From: Candidatus Saccharimonadia bacterium
GTDB taxonomy: Bacteria > Patescibacteriota > Saccharimonadia > UBA4664
Direction of reading: 5' to 3'
Length of the DNA: 64,000 nucleotides
Assembly: GCA_035544015.1 (NCBI GenBank)
Contig: DATKIP010000012.1
Location: 29,049-93,048 of the forward strand
Shown in pieces: positions 4,653-60,024 of this stretch. Numbering within the stretch: position 1 is the first letter of the stretch; the number at the start of each line of letters is the position of its first letter. Both the position numbers and the translations under genes were made by a program. The notes under the pieces were generated by a model that saw only the letters and a list, made by a program, of their open reading frames with translations, did not search any database and had not been told where the DNA came from.

Positions 4653-4762
4653 ATCCGGCACCGTGCTACTTTCCCCCAGAGGAGTATCATCGCCGCAGCG
4701 GGTCTTAACTTTGGTGTTCGAGATGGGAACCAGTGTATCCCCCGCGCTAAAAGCACCGGTCT
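4653..4762 (-). rRNA. rrf: 5S ribosomal RNA
   Basis: The reverse complement reads ccggtgcttttagcgcggggg...ttcccatctcgaacaccaaagttaagacccgctgcggcgatgatactcctctgggggaaagtagcacggtgccgg. This matches the 5S consensus (CCCAUGCCGAACUCAGAAGUGAAAC region) and helix I closes as CCGGUGC/GUGCCGG. It lies about 160 nt downstream of the 23S 3-prime end. Confidence 0.85.
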
Positions 4763-4924
4763 GGCATACGTGCGAGGCCATAGGCGTGCACTGGATGCCG
4801 GATCGGCGCTCTTACGGGAGCGCCAGATGTGTCGAAGATGAATGGATTTTGCCTACTAGAGGCTACAAACTGCTAGTCAAACATTTACTCTCTCGTTAGC
4901 CAGAATTGCGTAAGGCTAAAGAGA

Positions 4925-8215
<3,291 letters not shown>

Positions 8216-13814: not shown

Positions 13815-15170
13815 GGCGTGGCTCCTTCTAGCCCAAATTGTCCCTCCTCCGCTCCGACCGCGCAAGCATTCCAAAAATGTCTAAGGCATATTATAGTAGC
13901 CCGGTCCCGAAGTTCGAACCCGCCTTCGAAGGCCTGGTGCCCGTTGAATCCACATGTCCGCAACCTCCGCCTGCTCCAAAAGATCCGCGGCCTGAACTCC
14001 GTCAGCCCGTTCGTTGGCTACGCCGTCCCGTGGCTCAGGCAAAATCAGCTCAGCCTCAGCCAAATCACGGCCCTCCAAGCCATCGCCGGGCTCGCGGCCG
14101 CGCTCACGCTCGTTCCCACCGGCTACTTCGCCGACACCTTCGGCCGGCAACGCAGCATCATCATCGGCGGCCTGAGCTGCCTCATGGGATTCGTGCTCTA
14201 TGCCGCCGGCGGCGGCTTCGCGGTCTTCGTGGCGGCCCAGATCCTCATTGCCATCGGAGCCGCCTTCATCAGCGGCGCCGACGACTCGCTGGCCAACGAC
14301 AGCCTCGAAGCCTCCGGCCATGCCGCTCAAGCCGAGGACGCCTATCACCGTTATCAAAGCACTTTGATGGGCATCGAGGGCGGCGTGGAAGCCATCGGTG
14401 CCCTCACCGCCTTTGGCCTCGTGTACTTCGTCCATGCCGACCTGCGCACACCCATGGTCCTGCAGGTTCTCGTATATGCCTGGTTGACCGCCGAGGCCTT
14501 CCGGCTACACGAAGAACCGCCTCGGGCCCGTAGGTCGACAGCCGGCTGGAGCGACCTGCGCGCCACCCTCGCCGAATGCTGGAACAACCGCGCACTCTGG
14601 TGGCAATTGTGGTTTGCCATGGCCATCGGCAGCGCCACCCACACCATGGTGTGGCTCACTCAGCCATACTTCGGGGCAGCCCACATCGGCGCGGTGTGGT
14701 CGGGTCTGCTATGGGCGGGGCTCCTGGCATCACTCGAACCCTCTCGGCGTCTGGCCGAACGCCGGCGCCGGCGCGACCAGCTCACAAGCCCCGCCAAGCC
14801 GGGGCTATGGCGCGATTGCCGAGATCTCGTGGTCATCACCACCGCCACCTACGCGCTCCTGTCGGTGCTCGCCCCGTCACCACTCACCATTGCGCTAATC
14901 CTGGCGTTTTACTACGTCCGGGCCGCTCAGTACCCGCTCAACGCCGACCGCATCCGGCGCCTCGTCCGACCCGACCGGCTGGCCACGTTTTCGTCCGTGC
15001 GCACCATGGGCGAAAATCTCGTCTACGCCGCCCTCGTCTGGCCACTCGGAATCATCGCCGACCGCTCGTTACTCGGCGCCCTGTGCGTTTCCGGTGTGGC
15101 CTACCTCGTCCTGGCCGGCCTCGGCGTCCTCATGCTACGCCGATACCTGCTGCACCCAGCTCAGCCCTGA
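13791..15170 (+). CDS. MFS transporter (true start uncertain, probably downstream of 13791)
   Basis: MFS motif A region GLAAALTLVPTGYFADTFGRQRSIIIGG followed by about 10 further TM helices. The first TM is not clearly encoded downstream of a canonical start. High GC3. Confidence 0.65.
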   Translation: MTQFRNLHGVAPSSPNCPSSAPTAQAFQKCLRHIIVARSRSSNPPSKAWCPLNPHVRNLRLLQKIRGLNSVSPFVGYAVPWLRQNQLSLSQITALQAIAGLAAALTLVPTGYFADTFGRQRSIIIGGLSCLMGFVLYAAGGGFAVFVAAQILIAIGAAFISGADDSLANDSLEASGHAAQAEDAYHRYQSTLMGIEGGVEAIGALTAFGLVYFVHADLRTPMVLQVLVYAWLTAEAFRLHEEPPRARRSTAGWSDLRATLAECWNNRALWWQLWFAMAIGSATHTMVWLTQPYFGAAHIGAVWSGLLWAGLLASLEPSRRLAERRRRRDQLTSPAKPGLWRDCRDLVVITTATYALLSVLAPSPLTIALILAFYYVRAAQYPLNADRIRRLVRPDRLATFSSVRTMGENLVYAALVWPLGIIADRSLLGALCVSGVAYLVLAGLGVLMLRRYLLHPAQP

Positions 15171-16034: not shown

Positions 16035-16111
16035 GGGCTTGTAGCTCAGCTGGTTAGAGCGCGTCACTGATAATGACGAGGTCGCAGGTTCGAGTCCTGC
16101 CAAGCCCACCA
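16035..16111 (+). tRNA. tRNA-Ile (anticodon GAT)
   Basis: gggcttgtagctcagctggttagagcgcgtcactGATaatgacgaggtcgcaggttcgagtcctgccaagcccaCCA. Cloverleaf with 7-bp acceptor stem and T-loop GGTTCGAGTCC. Confidence 0.95.
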
Positions 16112-16133
16112 TGCAATTTTAATTTTCCCTATT

Positions 16134-16255
16134 ACGAACTGGCGCCTAGTGGGTAGTGCAAGGAGAGGCGAGCACCGGAGTGAAACGTACTCAGCCGTAC
16201 GTTGAGCGAGGAGCGCAAGACTCGACACCGCAATACGCGCTAGGCGCCAGTTCGT
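16134..16255. repeat. Perfect 16-bp inverted repeat (acgaactggcgcctag / ctaggcgccagttcgt) enclosing a 90-nt GC-rich element between tRNA-Ile and tRNA-Ala
   Basis: Directly visible. TTCCCT occurs on both flanks (16124-16129 and 16256-16261). Confidence 0.6.
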
Positions 16256-16260
16256 TTCCC

Positions 16261-16336
16261 TGGGGCATTAGCTCATTTGGTAGAGCGCCTGCTTTGCAAG
16301 CAGGAGGTGGCCGGTTCGAGCCCGGCATGCTCCACC
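16261..16336 (+). tRNA. tRNA-Ala (anticodon TGC)
   Basis: ggggcattagctcatttggtagagcgcctgcttTGCaagcaggaggtggccggttcgagcccggcatgctccaCCA, with the G3:U70 Ala identity pair. Confidence 0.95.
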
Positions 16337-16409
16337 AAGGATTTATCAACAAAAACGGCTTCCAGGAGCCGTTTTTAAGTTGCTTGCCCCAACGTAGTAT
16401 ACTTTTGTC

Positions 16410-29509: not shown

Positions 29510-30969
<1,460 letters not shown>

Positions 30970-31173
30970 AATATGCTACCGGATTGCTCCGACAGACTTG
31001 GGTTCGTTTGAGCTTGGCGCTCATTCAAAAAAATTTTTCGGTTCTTTGGTAGCTTGCGCTACCGAAAACTGATGTGCTCACGGCTTTCACCGTGGCACGG
31101 TAACCAACTTCCCGCTGACGGAAAAGTTGGCCACATCATTGCACTGCACGATTAATGATTTCAAGTTGCGTTG

Positions 31174-56742: not shown

Positions 56743-57770
56743 CGAAACTGCTCCAAAAACTTGAAGTTGGGTCGCCAAAACTCGCGCACGTCATCCACTC
56801 CATACTTTATAGCTGCCAACCTCTCCGGCCCAAAGCCAAAGGCAAAGCCGCTATACACCTCCGGGTCGATCCCCACATTGCGCAACACCTGCGGATGCAC
56901 CATGCCAGCACCCCCCAGCTCAAGCCAACCAGTGCCACTACACAAATGACACCCTTTGCCATCCCGCAAACCAGTGCCGCCACAAATCACACATGTTGCA
57001 TCCATCTCAACACTTGGCTCAGTATAAGGAAAATAATTCGACCGCAGTCGTACCTTCGTCTCGTCGCCCAGCACTCCACGCATCATTTGCTCAAGCGTAC
57101 CCTTGAGGTCACCCAAGCTAATGCCCTCATCCACCACCAATCCCTCAATCTGATAAAAGCTCCACGAATGCCGGGCATCCTCATCCTCATTGCGATAAAC
57201 CTTCCCCGGAGCAATGATCCGGATAGGGAAGTCGTCATGATGCTCAAGCATATAGCGAATCTGAATCCCCGAGGTATGCGTCCGCGGCAAATTCCCCTCT
57301 TCCAGATAGAATGTATCCTGCATGTCGCGCGCGGGGTGGTCCTTGCCCACTAAAAGCGCCTCAAAGTTATGCCACTCGGTCTCCACCTCCGGACCATCCG
57401 CCACCTGATACCCCATCTGCCAAAACAAGTCCACCAGCTCATCAAGCACCATGCTCACCGGATGGTGATGCCCCAACACCGGCCAAACTCCCGGCGCCGT
57501 CACATCCAGCGGCTCAGCCAACGCCATTGCCTCCACTGCGGCAGCCAGTTCCGTCTCGCGAGCCGCCATCGCCGCCTCCACCGCCTCCCGCAACGCGTTG
57601 GCCCGCTTGCCGGCCTCTGCCCTCTCCCCCGCCGGCAGCGCCCCCACCGCCTTGAGCTCATCGGTGAGGCCGCCCTTGCGCCCCAGATACGCCACACGCA
57701 CCAGCTCAAGCTCACTCAAGCTCGAAGCATCCGCAATTTTTTCCATGATTTCGGCTGCGTCTAGGGCCAC
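56739..57770 (-). CDS. pheS: Phenylalanine--tRNA ligase alpha subunit
   Basis: HHPVSMVLDELVDLFWQMGY, class II motifs (..FRNEDEDARHSWSFYQIEG.., GAGMVHPQVL..). Confidence 0.9.
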   Translation of the reverse strand: MALDAAEIMEKIADASSLSELELVRVAYLGRKGGLTDELKAVGALPAGERAEAGKRANALREAVEAAMAARETELAAAVEAMALAEPLDVTAPGVWPVLGHHHPVSMVLDELVDLFWQMGYQVADGPEVETEWHNFEALLVGKDHPARDMQDTFYLEEGNLPRTHTSGIQIRYMLEHHDDFPIRIIAPGKVYRNEDEDARHSWSFYQIEGLVVDEGISLGDLKGTLEQMMRGVLGDETKVRLRSNYFPYTEPSVEMDATCVICGGTGLRDGKGCHLCSGTGWLELGGAGMVHPQVLRNVGIDPEVYSGFAFGFGPERLAAIKYGVDDVREFWRPNFKFLEQFR

Positions 57771-58135
57771 CTAAGCCTCACGTAAACTTCCACGATCACA
57801 AGTAATATTCCCAGTAGTATAGCATCAAGCACGCCCAGCTGGTGCAACGAGCTCAAACTCAGCATCCCCACCAGCCAACCACTCACCAGCATCCCCTGCC
57901 GCCACGAATAACGCAGCCGCGCCGCAGCCGTCGCATGTAGCCTCAAATACGTCTTGGCCCCATACAGGCCCAGGGTCAACCCGCACGCCAGCACCAGCAG
58001 AAGCAGCACAAACCACACCGTCACCCCAAGCGGTCCCACCGCCTCCGGATTCGTCACAATCAAGCTCAGCACCAAACCGATCGCTCCCGCCAGCGACCCA
58101 ATAATCAAAACCGTTATCCACGCCAACACCGTCAC
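57761..58135 (-). CDS. Small membrane protein (about 124 aa, GTG start), first gene of the membrane-pheS-pheT transcription unit
   Basis: 4 TM helices. Overlaps the pheS start by about 10 nt. Confidence 0.45.
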   Translation of the reverse strand: MTVLAWITVLIIGSLAGAIGLVLSLIVTNPEAVGPLGVTVWFVLLLLVLACGLTLGLYGAKTYLRLHATAAARLRYSWRQGMLVSGWLVGMLSLSSLHQLGVLDAILLGILLVIVEVYVRLRWP

Positions 58136-58187
58136 CGCATATCACTCACGCTTACGTCTCCCCTATTATCTCACCCCGCCACCATCC

Positions 58188-58244
58188 ACCGCAAACCAAA
58201 AACCGCTCAGATGCGGGCGCCTCGCGGCGGCCGCATCTGAGCGG
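58188..58244 (-). terminator. Strong intrinsic terminator (14-bp stem plus U5)
   Basis: On the minus-strand RNA: CCGCUCAGAUGCGG-(14-nt GC loop)-CCGCAUCUGAGCGG followed by UUUUUGGUUUG. It ends about 55 nt upstream of the membrane-protein GTG. Confidence 0.55.
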
Positions 58245-58730
58245 TTCAGCAAAATAAGTGCAGAGTTACGGGGCGAAATCTGAAGCATCCATGTGTGTAA
58301 TTGACGCCAGTCGCCCCGCAACGATCTCTACCCGTGTGGAGCGCATAGCGTTTTTCCTTTATGAGGATTGATGAACAACGTGGTGCGTTTTTGTTTTGGA
58401 GTAAAGATTTTTGTGTGGTTGGATTAGTCGACCGCAAATTATTGTGGCTATTGCTTCGAGCTGAATCCATATTACTTCCCACCAACCCGTATGGGGTGGC
58501 CGGAAGCATTCGGCTACGACCATGGGTCATAACCGCGTGCTTCCGGCAACCCGATGACTCTGCGCGATACCTTGGTTTGGGCCCAAAGTAAGAGTCTTCT
58601 GGCCGTGACCATTCTGGTCGAGACAGTAGAGCAAACCCGGATTAGAAATAAGGGGGATACCTCTAACCGGGGTTCGCTCTACCGTCTGGGTGCGGAAGAA
58701 AGCAATGAGAACTAAACTATCAACGAACTG
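58245..58730 (-). ncRNA. Candidate structured non-coding RNA or long regulatory leader (about 490-540 nt) between trpS and the pheST operon. Identity unknown.
   Basis: AT-rich. Contains only short ORFs with Arg/His-rich junk composition. Several long hairpins whose G.U pairs are valid only on the minus strand (e.g. 58620-58688 with an 18-bp stem; 58497-58547 with a 14-bp stem). Bounded by a promoter-like element and a terminator. Confidence 0.3.
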
Positions 58731-58735
58731 AACAT

Positions 58736-58764
58736 AACTTAGCACAAGCAGTTTAGATTGTCAA
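58736..58764 (-). promoter_or_regulatory. Candidate promoter for the non-coding locus
   Basis: On the minus strand: TTGACA (58764-58759), a 17-nt spacer, then TAAGTT (58741-58736). Confidence 0.3.
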
Positions 58765-59019
58765 TATTCTTATGTTATTTAGCGCCCTGCTCCCATAAAT
58801 GACTTAGGATAGGGAAAATAACGCCATAAACCCCCTATTTTTGTTCCCCTGAAATCGGGTCTATGTAGAGATATTAACAACATTTATGCACAAAAGTTTA
58901 GGCCGTTCTCGATTGCAGAAAAAAGATTGTAAAATATTACCCTAATAAAGCAAATTATTCACGGGTACTCAAAAACCTTAGATCATGCGTCCACCCAGAA
59001 AATAGAGCACACGAGCGTA

Positions 59020-60024
59020 TTACAACAGGCCGAGAACTTCTTTCACCTGCGCCAGCTTAGCGTTCGCAAGCTCCGATGCCCGCCACCAACCGTGCTCCAG
59101 CGCCTTATCAATCTTCTCGTTGCCCTCATGGGTCAGCTGCCCATACAAGTGCTGCAGGGGGCGAAGCGTACGTACCACCTCTTCGGCCAAATCCCGCTTA
59201 AAGACGCCGTATCCCGAACCGGCGTACTTTTCTTCCAGTTCCGCCACCGACTTCTCGCTCAGCACGGACATAATCACGAGTAAATTGGTCAACGCCGGTT
59301 TATCGGCGCCGGCCGCCACCACGCTGCCCGAATCTGTCACCGCTCGCAAAATCTTTTTCTCAATGAGCCCCTCGTCATCTTTGAGCAAAATGTTGCCGGA
59401 ATCATCAAGATCACTCTTGCTCATTTTCTTGGTGGGGTCCTGAAGGTTCATAATCCGCGCCCCCTCGGTCTGTACCGTCGGCGCCGGCACCTTAAAGGTC
59501 TCACCGTGAACGTTGTTAAACCGCGTCGCAATATCGCGCGTCAGCTCAATGTGCTGCTTCTGGTCCTCGCCCACCGGCACCTCATCGGCGTCATACAGCA
59601 AAATATCCGCGGCCATCAGTACTGGGTAGTCGTACAAACCCACCAACTGCCCCTCTGCACCGCCGCTCTTGAGCGACCGGTCTTTAAACTGCGTCATCCG
59701 GTTGAGCTCACCGATAGTGGTGTAGTTGTTCAAAATCCACGTCAGCTCCGAGTGAGCCGGCACCTGCGACTGCATAAAGATGTACGAATGGTCATGATCA
59801 ACTCCGCACGCCAGCAGCCATGCCACCGCCGACCGGCTATCCCGCTGGAGCACCTCCGGCTCCGGCCGCGCCGTCAGCGCATGCAAATTGGGCACAAAAA
59901 AGAAATGCTCGCGGTTTGGGTCGGCGCTCATCTGTCCCCAGCGCCGCATCGCGCCTATGTAATTTCCAAGTGTCAATTCTCCGGTGGGCTTAATACCCGA
60001 AACAACTCGCTTCACTGTCATCAC
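59020..60024 (-). CDS. trpS: Tryptophan--tRNA ligase
   Basis: SGIKPTGELTLGNYIGA (HIGH-type), ...TKKMSKSD (KMSKS), 334 aa. Confidence 0.9.
   Translation of the reverse strand: MMTVKRVVSGIKPTGELTLGNYIGAMRRWGQMSADPNREHFFFVPNLHALTARPEPEVLQRDSRSAVAWLLACGVDHDHSYIFMQSQVPAHSELTWILNNYTTIGELNRMTQFKDRSLKSGGAEGQLVGLYDYPVLMAADILLYDADEVPVGEDQKQHIELTRDIATRFNNVHGETFKVPAPTVQTEGARIMNLQDPTKKMSKSDLDDSGNILLKDDEGLIEKKILRAVTDSGSVVAAGADKPALTNLLVIMSVLSEKSVAELEEKYAGSGYGVFKRDLAEEVVRTLRPLQHLYGQLTHEGNEKIDKALEHGWWRASELANAKLAQVKEVLGLL

Follow-up and report, generated by a model that had tools for sequence, protein, structure and literature searches.

The stretch of DNA analysed here, 64,000 nucleotides (nt) of contig DATKIP010000012.1 from a Candidatus Saccharimonadia bacterium (assembly GCA_035544015.1), is hereafter called the window. 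On its minus strand it carries trpS (60024-59020), followed in that direction by a gap of 884 nt and then by genes for a membrane protein (58135-57761), PheS (57770-56739) and PheT. Our data indicate that the gap very probably holds, at 58730-58198 on the minus strand, a free-standing gene for a structured non-coding RNA of ~530 nt that belongs to a new family. The original prediction, made from the DNA letters, had described an AT-rich gap of ~880 nt and had left two readings side by side, an independent structured RNA gene or a long leader with an attenuator controlling pheS-pheT. The gap measures 884 nt, and AT-richness turned out to apply only to the spacer at 59019-58765 (35-37% GC), the RNA body having 45-56% GC.

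We compared the gap with related loci from several retrievals. L001-L010 are trpS loci; the nearest loci found through trpS come from metagenome-assembled genomes of Saccharimonadia and Patescibacteria, with TrpS identities of 76-86%. L131-L135 were fetched through a membrane protein of the type found in L010. Metagenome loci came from an exact-match scan with an 18-mer from the apical loop of a hairpin that we call H1, which returned 50 loci; 15 of these, representing 13 distinct sequences, carry the whole element, and ~35 are chance matches or an unrelated ribosome-binding site from the gut. As a separate observation, the 18-mer also occurs on the opposite strand in gut contigs (L082, L085, L093, L107, L110, L113 and others), where it belongs to an unrelated recurrent gene and covers that gene's ribosome-binding site and start region (AAGGGGGAUA...AUG), a match that is coincidental. 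In total we worked with ~28 homologous loci, found either through synteny or with the loop sequence itself. The features of the locus, in the direction of transcription, are as follows.

58861-58895, minus strand: upstream palindromic motif TTTGTGCATAAAYGTTGT-N8-10-CAACA, aligned across L001, L003, L005, L006, L008 and others
58736-58764, minus strand: promoter, with a -35 element TTGACA (58764-58759), a 17-nt spacer and an extended -10 element TGcTAAGTT (58744-58736)
58707-58730, minus strand: 5' segment CAGUUCGUUGAUAGUUUAGUUCUC, made up of invariant alignment columns
58694-58706, minus strand: 5' strand of the closing helix P1 (..UUGCUUUCUUCC), which pairs with GGGAAGUAAU at 58480-58471
58622-58687, minus strand: hairpin H1, ~28 bp (27-28 consensus pairs), apical loop UCCCCCU with its C5 run at 58656-58652
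58557-58595, minus strand: H2, in which an internal loop follows the basal stem ACUCU/AGAGU and the apical hairpin has a loop of 7 nt, G(Y)CCAAA
58499-58547, minus strand: H3, a long regular hairpin GCCGGAAGCAnGCGGUUAUGA.../...UCGUAGCCGAAUGCUUCCGGC, 21 pairs, 9 of them compensatory (consensus helix 5)
58471-58497, minus strand: H4 (CACCC-N4-GGGUG) and then the 3' strand of P1, GGGAAGUAAU, from the alignment and duplex prediction
58409-58468, minus strand: variable middle, with H5 (GGAUUCAGCUCGA.../...UCGACUAAUCC) and a C/A-rich linker, from the alignment and the minimum free energy (MFE) fold
58324-58408, minus strand: long-range stem between AUCUUUACU (58408-58400) and GGUAGAGAU (58332-58324), 7 pairs, 4 of them compensatory (consensus helix 7)
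58251-58320, minus strand: 3' hairpin UGCGGGGCGACUGGCGUC-CAAUUACACAC-..GGAUGCUUCAG..UUCGCCCCGUA, 17 pairs, 9 of them compensatory, with the tail AACUCUGCAYUUAUUUU
58198-58246, minus strand: intrinsic terminator, a ~20-bp hairpin with apical GCC-GCGA-GGC (58246-58203 in the MFE fold) and U5 at 58202-58198
58165-58197, minus strand: operon promoter, GGTTTGC and then an extended -10 element TGAGATAAT (58173-58165), TG(A/C)GATAAT in most homologues
57761-58135, minus strand: membrane protein, 124 amino acids, four predicted transmembrane segments, its stop overlapping the pheS start at 57770; not part of the RNA

In blastn comparisons of the gap with the trpS loci, L001-L008 show 67-80% identity over up to 680 nt, and the similarity begins exactly at the promoter and stops at the terminator. 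L009, with a TrpS of 60% identity, retains only short cores of the conserved sequence. Promoter, body and terminator are kept downstream of trpS in L001-L010. The TTGACA-17-TAAGTT element that had been read at 58764-58736 is present and conserved: the hexamer TAAGTT (58741-58736) is preceded by a TG, which makes it an extended -10 element, and the -35 element, the spacing and TGcTAAGTT are all kept in ~20 homologues, including the AT-rich L010 (TTGACA...TTGCTACAATT). Transcription is predicted to start near 58729. The palindromic motif TTTGTGCATAAAYGTTGT-N8-10-CAACA, which sits ~75 nt upstream of the -35 element, stays with the RNA gene in L003, where the upstream neighbor is not trpS; it may be the site of a regulator, either an operator or an activator site.

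The RNA gene ends in a strong intrinsic terminator with a U5 tract. The original prediction had placed a 14-bp stem at 58188-58244, ending 55 nt before the first gene of the operon; we find instead ~20 pairs in a span of 58246-58198, which leaves 62 nt up to the GTG start at 58135. In 17/17 full-length homologues there is a hairpin with at least four T in a row directly after it, and 8/8 basal pairs tested covary (consensus helix 10). The stems otherwise vary, and many homologues share the apical GCC-G(U/C)GA-GGC, a GNRA-type tetraloop. As far as the aligned sequences tell, arms that change this freely, the apical GCC-GNRA-GGC aside, are as expected of a gene terminator and not of an expression platform. 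A generic terminator scanner did not report this terminator in the window, because its stem has an internal mismatch.

After the terminator, the membrane-protein/pheS/pheT operon has its own conserved extended -10 element, TGNGATAAT. In L008 and L010 the corresponding TG(A/C)GATAAT lies 150-330 nt past the terminator, which shows RNA gene and operon promoter to be modules that can be separated; at the operon-promoter position, L131 carries a promoter of the TTGACA type. Other genes also come between the RNA and its neighbors. A 177-amino acid gene on the opposite strand separates the RNA from the membrane/pheST operon in L111, as do two genes in L135, and in L002, L003, L083 and L119 trpS and the RNA are parted by a ~430-amino acid gene on the opposite strand. 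Together with the conserved promoter and the covarying terminator, the separate operon promoter and these intervening genes bear out the first of the two original readings, that of an independent structured RNA gene.

The RNA is predicted to fold far more stably than shuffled sequence. The MFE of the 561-nt stretch on the minus strand is -249.4 kcal/mol, compared to -168.9 +/- 6.8 kcal/mol for dinucleotide shuffles (z = -11.8), and the plus strand folds more weakly (-227 kcal/mol, z = -8.2). We analyzed covariation in an alignment of 17 full-length sequences of 440-553 nt (A6), leaving out a cmsearch-built alignment (A7) in which sense and antisense matches are mixed. The RNAalifold consensus of A6 has 99 pairs in 10 helices, with 95.8% of cells paired. 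Compensatory double changes are found at 48 of the 99 pairs, compared to 21.7 +/- 2.8 in column shuffles (0/500 reach 48) and to 12-16 in a control in which the partners were slid by 1-3 columns. The covariation score is 0.305 versus 0.173. The comparative alignment that the original prediction had asked for thus supports a structured RNA. Many invariant G-U pairs fit the minus strand, and two covariance models score higher on it (R1, which matches H1, 85.7 bits on the minus strand versus 47.2 bits on the plus strand; R2, 84 bits, with matches on the minus strand only); because of these two lines of evidence we take the minus strand to be the transcribed one. The earlier observation that the G.U pairs work only in the minus-strand RNA agrees with this result.

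The RNA begins with the conserved 5' single strand CAGUUCGUUGAAAGUU. The AGUUC of the 5' segment may pair with GGAYU at 58468-58464 and so lengthen P1, according to duplex prediction. P1 itself (CUUCC/GGAAG) pairs in 17/17 sequences by RNAduplex, and is missing from the RNAalifold consensus because the alignment is gappy. The domain inside P1 consists of H1, H2, H3 and H4. Two of these had been recognized from the sequence as an 18-bp stem at 58620-58688 and a 14-bp stem at 58497-58547; both are present, as H1 (58687-58622, 27-28 consensus pairs) and H3 (58547-58499, 21 pairs). H1 has compensatory changes at 15/27 pairs across 23 sequences, and in an AT-rich sister clade (L010, L131-L135) the entire upper stem GGUUAGAGGUA/UAUUUCUAACC is swapped for CAUAAAAAGC/GCUUUUUAUG. 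In H2, 11/11 pairs show compensatory changes (consensus helices 3 and 4); an alternative pairing of its AGAGUU with the 3' tail UAACUCU was rejected, as covariation favors the local stem.

Not all of these parts are kept everywhere. L006, L009 and L111 lack H2 and H3, which in the L010 clade are replaced; GGGAAGU is retained in that clade as well. The middle region (58409-58468) is poorly conserved in sequence and variable in length. The long-range stem encloses a variable insert that contains a Shine-Dalgarno (SD)-like AGGA, an AUG (58346) and small hairpins, and that is absent in L004 and L008. The conserved 3' hairpin reads CGGGGCGACUGGCGUC-CAAUUACACA-GGAUGCUUCAG-UCGCCCCG, followed by the tail AACUCUGCAAUUAUUU, and, as the part matched by R2, it is also found in L010 and L131-L135. 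Since H2 and H3 are lost or replaced in some lineages, the signature of the family, as read from the alignments, is limited to H1 with its C5 loop, GGGAAGU, the long-range stem, the 3' hairpin, GUAAC and the terminator.

Homologues range in length from ~400 to 553 nt, with the AT-rich sister clade carrying a shorter version of ~400 nt that both models match. As a working definition, a member of the family combines in one transcript an H1 hairpin with the N-CCCCC-UU loop, a 3' hairpin CGGGSC...CAAUUA...GSCCCGUAAC and a terminator. Both models match, in order and on one strand, at every training locus as well as in the window, L010 and L131-L135. R1 had no match among other trpS loci, both those of CPR (candidate phyla radiation) bacteria and others, and outside the family R2 matched only two loci, both marginally and without R1: L013 at 15.7 bits (E 0.042) and L045 at 15.1 bits (E 0.073). 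The other CPR trpS loci (Levyibacteria, Berkelbacteria, WWE3 and others) do not share the synteny, so absence there says little. As far as we have seen, the family appears to be restricted to Saccharimonadia.

Searches for known RNA families gave no match. At the gathering score, Rfam 15 has no match to the region in the window or in 27 homologous loci, and cmscan of 57900-59200 with permissive filters and E up to 10 returned only generic hairpin matches, among which plant miRNA precursor and isrD/isrG matches on the terminator and H3 were rejected. The Infernal/Rfam scan by which the original prediction could have been overturned thus matched no known family. The earlier failure to match transfer-messenger RNA (tmRNA) or RNase P was confirmed with dedicated models: ARAGORN found no tmRNA in the window, Rfam gave no tmRNA match (RF00023 and permuted forms) and the region lacks a tRNA-like domain; the RNase P RNA models (RF00010/RF00011), which comprise the P4 pseudoknot and regions CR-I to CR-V, had no match at E up to 10. 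Neither did the models for 6S RNA (RF00013 and its clan) match; 6S is a rod-like hairpin of ~180 nt with a large central bubble, the consensus here being multi-domain with 10 helices and 440-553 nt, nor that for OLE RNA (RF01071) in the window or the homologues. The family is not represented in Rfam 15, and its newness is that of an RNA family, not of a mechanism. We found no earlier description of this RNA in full-text literature whose coverage leaves out most subscription journals.

The most conserved feature of the RNA is the apical loop of H1, N-CCCCC-UU, which is unchanged in 23/23 sequences from both clades. Across the clades, conservation of the loop is limited to CCCCCUU. GGGGG sites and G-rich ribosome-binding sites were uninformative as targets of the loop, and a search for paralogy between the RNA and ribosomal RNA (rRNA) leaders, spacers or any other sequence in the window yielded only chance matches of 10-15 nt. 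Runs of GGGGG/CCCCC are depleted in the window as a whole (141 found, compared to 278 +/- 21 expected from dinucleotide shuffles). Within the loop, GUAUCCCCC is a perfect 9-nt complement of 5S rRNA nt 18-26, GGGGGAUAC, in helix II/loop B (the 5S gene is at 4653-4760, minus strand). The predicted duplex has an energy of -18.9 kcal/mol, a value that 0.4% of shuffled loops and 1.25% of shuffled 5S sequences attain, with no correction made for the other RNAs tried, and the site on 5S is half buried in helix II. H1 also contains GGUAUCCCCCUUAUUUCUA, which resembles the 3' end of the organism's 16S rRNA, GGAUCACCUCCUUUCUA. At the apex of H2 (58566-58590), the loop G(U/C)CCAAA on a 5-6-bp stem resembles the CUCCAAA of tRNA-Trp; in L005 the loop is GUUCUUA.

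The membrane protein downstream of the RNA is annotated at NCBI as a hypothetical protein of 'Candidatus Saccharimonadia bacterium', and has no relative in Pfam, NCBIfam or the PDB. A word-indexed search gave only 142 and 43 homologues for the two clades, in Saccharimonadia-like genomes only. In L001-L010 and L131-L135 the protein has 124-131 amino acids, a basic loop and a C-terminal R-x-R-W-P tail, and its gene is always the first of the pheS-pheT operon. In the same operon, PheT of L131 (4900-7387) and of L132-L134 is 915-924 amino acids long and carries a Pfam NLPC_P60 (cell-wall peptidase) match between the B3_4 and B5 domains, an unusual insertion.

We weighed several explanations other than a free-standing RNA gene with a trans-acting product. 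The second of the original readings makes the RNA a cis-regulatory leader or attenuator of the membrane-protein/pheS/pheT operon, which would regulate terminator read-through in response to tRNA-Phe or Phe. In most genomes the pheST operon does follow directly on the RNA and has a strong terminator ahead of it, a short open reading frame (ORF) with an SD-like AGGA ends just before that terminator, and pheST is under T-box or attenuator control in other bacteria. However, neither the T-box model (RF00230), which comprises Stem I with a specifier loop, Stem III and an antiterminator, nor any other cis-regulator model matched 57900-59200 even at E up to 10, and the T-box model had no match in the 27 loci at the gathering score. 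The T-box sequence AGGGUGGNACCGCG is absent, as had been noted from the start, and we saw neither an antiterminator that would compete with the 5' arm of the terminator nor any other conserved antiterminator alternative. The UGG candidate in CGACUGGCGUC varies between genomes (CUGG, CCGG, CAAG, CAGG), and a T-box-like reading of this element and of a UUC candidate was rejected, both lying inside covarying helices. A pheM-type leader peptide would be a short, conserved, Phe-rich ORF overlapping alternative hairpins; the ORF here has one Phe codon and a frame that is not conserved. With the operon promoter past the terminator and the intervening genes of L111 and L135 also breaking the linkage, the leader reading is largely refuted and strikes us as very improbable. 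The same ORF, in the interval 58266-58360, might instead mark a small-protein or dual-function gene, in which the SD-like AGGA and the AUG at 58346 would start a 26-amino acid peptide. We listed all ORFs of at least 20 amino acids and traced this one through 21 homologues: in ~15/21 sequences an AUG at one shared alignment position has an AGGA/GGAG 7-10 nt upstream, and nine of the ORFs end at the same conserved UAA. Against a coding role, the ORFs occupy three reading frames across genomes through compensating 1-2-nt indels, their stops otherwise differ or run on, and the peptide sequences are unrelated in the middle. The ORF is absent or shortened in six or more homologues (it is missing from L004, L008 and L119, has four codons in L127, and L111 has no AUG at the conserved position), and the conserved blocks contain scattered 1-nt and 2-nt indels. 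Helices account for the nucleotides that are conserved, with AGGA pairing with an upstream UCCU. We rejected the ORF as a coding gene, and a small-protein explanation is hardly credible; from these comparisons, the RNA encodes no conserved protein.

A different possibility is that the RNA is a housekeeping RNA (6S, RNase P RNA, tmRNA or signal recognition particle (SRP) RNA) so divergent that standard models miss it in CPR. Its promoter is strong, conserved and rRNA-like, conserved RNAs in small genomes are usually housekeeping, and GGGAAGUAAUCGG loosely resembles the P4 strand of RNase P, GAGGAAAGUCCGG. Yet none of these families matched at E up to 10 or in the 27 homologues, and a tRNA-like domain, a P4/CR-V partner, the SRP domain IV motif and a rod with a central bubble are all absent. 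GGGAAGU and the 5' CUUCC form a plain closing helix, some lineages have lost core parts, and the length of ~530 nt exceeds that of 6S and SRP RNA by a wide margin, an argument already made in the original prediction; we give this explanation very little credence. The RNA could also be one subunit of a membrane-tethered ribonucleoprotein formed with the adjacent protein, by analogy with OLE RNA, which is ~600 nt long and encoded directly upstream of oapA. A protein with four transmembrane segments (124-128 amino acids, with a basic loop and tail) adjoins the RNA in nearly every locus of both clades, and its family, which has no known domain, is found only in these lineages. But the protein is co-operonic and translationally coupled with pheS, not with the RNA, it has a separate promoter, genes are inserted between the two in L111 and L135, L083 has no such gene within 450 nt and the OLE model does not match; in these data the co-occurrence is indistinguishable from plain synteny, and we consider such a partnership unlikely. 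Finally, the RNA might act as a decoy or mimic of the translation apparatus, with the H2 loop posing as the anticodon loop of tRNA-Trp for TrpRS, the H1 loop as the 16S 3' tail or a 5S partner, or both. In this case one could point to the position beside trpS, to the H2 loop, which matches CUCCAAA at 5-6 of 7 positions in 15/16 H2-bearing sequences, to the likeness of GGUAUCCCCCUUAUUUCUA to the 16S end, and to the perfect complementarity of GUAUCCCCC to 5S nt 18-26 (p ~0.004-0.012 for 5S alone). Mimicry is made improbable by the absence of H2 in L006, L009 and L111, by its different loop in L005 and unrelated loop in the L010 clade, by the restriction of H1-loop conservation across clades to CCCCCUU, by the half-buried 5S site and by p-values left uncorrected for the several RNAs tried.

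Among known systems, the RNA appears to work most like a trans-acting structured RNA, and by the models tested it is not a T-box, RNase P, tmRNA, SRP, 6S, OLE or 6C RNA. It shares with the C-rich-loop small RNAs (6C of Actinobacteria, RsaE/RoxS of Firmicutes) its own promoter and intrinsic terminator, and an invariant apical C run as the most conserved element. C-rich-loop small RNAs of Hfq-less Gram-positive bacteria pair with G-rich or Shine-Dalgarno regions of mRNAs. Those RNAs have 60-120 nt and two or more C-rich loops, 6C being marked by a pair of short hairpins with at least six C in each loop; this RNA, in contrast, has 400-550 nt and ~10 helices, and its only C5 loop sits on a helix of 28 bp. 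With no match to the models for 6C (RF01066) or RsaE and no target identified, the likeness to 6C and RsaE is a functional analogy only. OLE (with OapA), ROOL, GOLLD and raiA RNAs resemble it in their size of ~0.5 kb, many covarying helices, conserved blocks, narrow range and non-coding nature, and the gene, like ole with oapA, lies directly upstream of a gene for a small multi-pass membrane protein. It matches none of these RNAs in sequence or structure, however, and the neighboring protein belongs to the pheST operon, has a separate promoter and shows no homology to a known partner. T-box and pheM-type attenuators likewise lie upstream of pheS-pheT with a strong terminator between, but the RNA has no Stem I or specifier, no T-box sequence and no antiterminator, its ORF is not Phe-rich and the operon has its own promoter; moreover, a T-box acts in cis and is always in the 5' untranslated region of the gene it regulates, whereas this RNA is separated from pheST in L111 and L135. 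Like 6S and Ms1 RNA, it combines a strong, constitutive-looking promoter with a stable, structured, lineage-conserved transcript, but it is not rod-shaped, has no central bubble resembling an open promoter, is two to three times longer and does not match 6S models.

Considering all of this evidence, we judge it likely that the locus is a free-standing structured RNA gene whose product is a trans-acting, stable regulatory or scaffold RNA. The gene would be transcribed from the near-consensus sigma-70-type promoter and end at its own intrinsic terminator. The transcript would fold into a 5' domain (P1 closing H1-H4), a variable middle, the long-range stem and the conserved 3' hairpin, and is probably stable, terminator-capped and abundant. 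The RNA would then act in trans, with the invariant N-CCCCC-UU loop, held atop a ~28-bp helix of freely changing sequence, as its likeliest contact site, through which it could base-pair with a G-rich partner or bind a protein. That the C-loop contacts G-rich RNA is our leading but tentative proposal, drawn by analogy with C-rich-loop small RNAs, and we rate it less likely than not; the main alternative to it is a role as a ribonucleoprotein scaffold.

Several points weigh against this reading. Complements of the H1 loop occur within the window at chance frequency only, with no target or partner identified there, and the complementarity to 5S rRNA is only nominally significant. H2 and H3 are dispensable in L006, L009 and L111, meaning that part of the structure is not essential. 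A consensus promoter scanner did not list the RNA promoter, because TAAGTT matches TATAAT at only 3/6 positions, and the transcription start, the 3' end and the abundance of the RNA are all deduced from sequence. The ~28 loci were obtained by synteny or by the loop sequence, so the sample does not show the true distribution beyond them. Finally, in most genomes the RNA is in tight synteny with both trpS and the membrane/pheST operon, and a functional link between it and these genes may exist.

The window holds some further features apart from the RNA locus. Its rRNA genes are unlinked (4653-8183 and 29512-30973), with 16S ~21 kb from 23S-5S, and the 23S match spans 3255 nt compared to the 2925 positions of the model, implying an insertion of ~330 nt. 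The genes for tRNA-Ile and tRNA-Ala(UGC) stand apart from them, at 16035-16337 on the opposite strand. ARAGORN also lists an 89-nt tRNA-Ala(GGC) at 14566-14654 that the Rfam tRNA model does not report, and which is either doubtful or an unusual or intron-bearing tRNA.

CPR/Patescibacteria make up a large share of bacterial diversity and have tiny genomes, and to our knowledge almost no non-coding RNAs have been described in them beyond the universal ones. Bacterial RNAs of more than 400 nt with many covarying helices are rare, and the known large cases have proved to be either ribozymes or ribonucleoprotein scaffolds of an unusual kind (RNase P, group I/II introns, OLE, ROOL, GOLLD). With an alignment, a consensus structure and two covariance models now in hand, the distribution, partners and essentiality of the new family can be tested directly, also in the few Saccharibacteria that can be cultivated, provided that they have the RNA. 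A 0.5-kb RNA gene with a near-consensus promoter has been kept in a genome of ~1 Mb and across lineages with TrpS identities of only ~50%, and this is sequence spent on something important. One idea, which we offer as speculative and rather unlikely, is that this large, ornate, Saccharimonadia-specific RNA is the core of a lineage-specific ribonucleoprotein, tethered by the four-transmembrane protein or docking on the translation machinery via its C5 loop. If true, the RNA would be a previously unknown component of CPR cell biology, and not an ordinary base-pairing small RNA.

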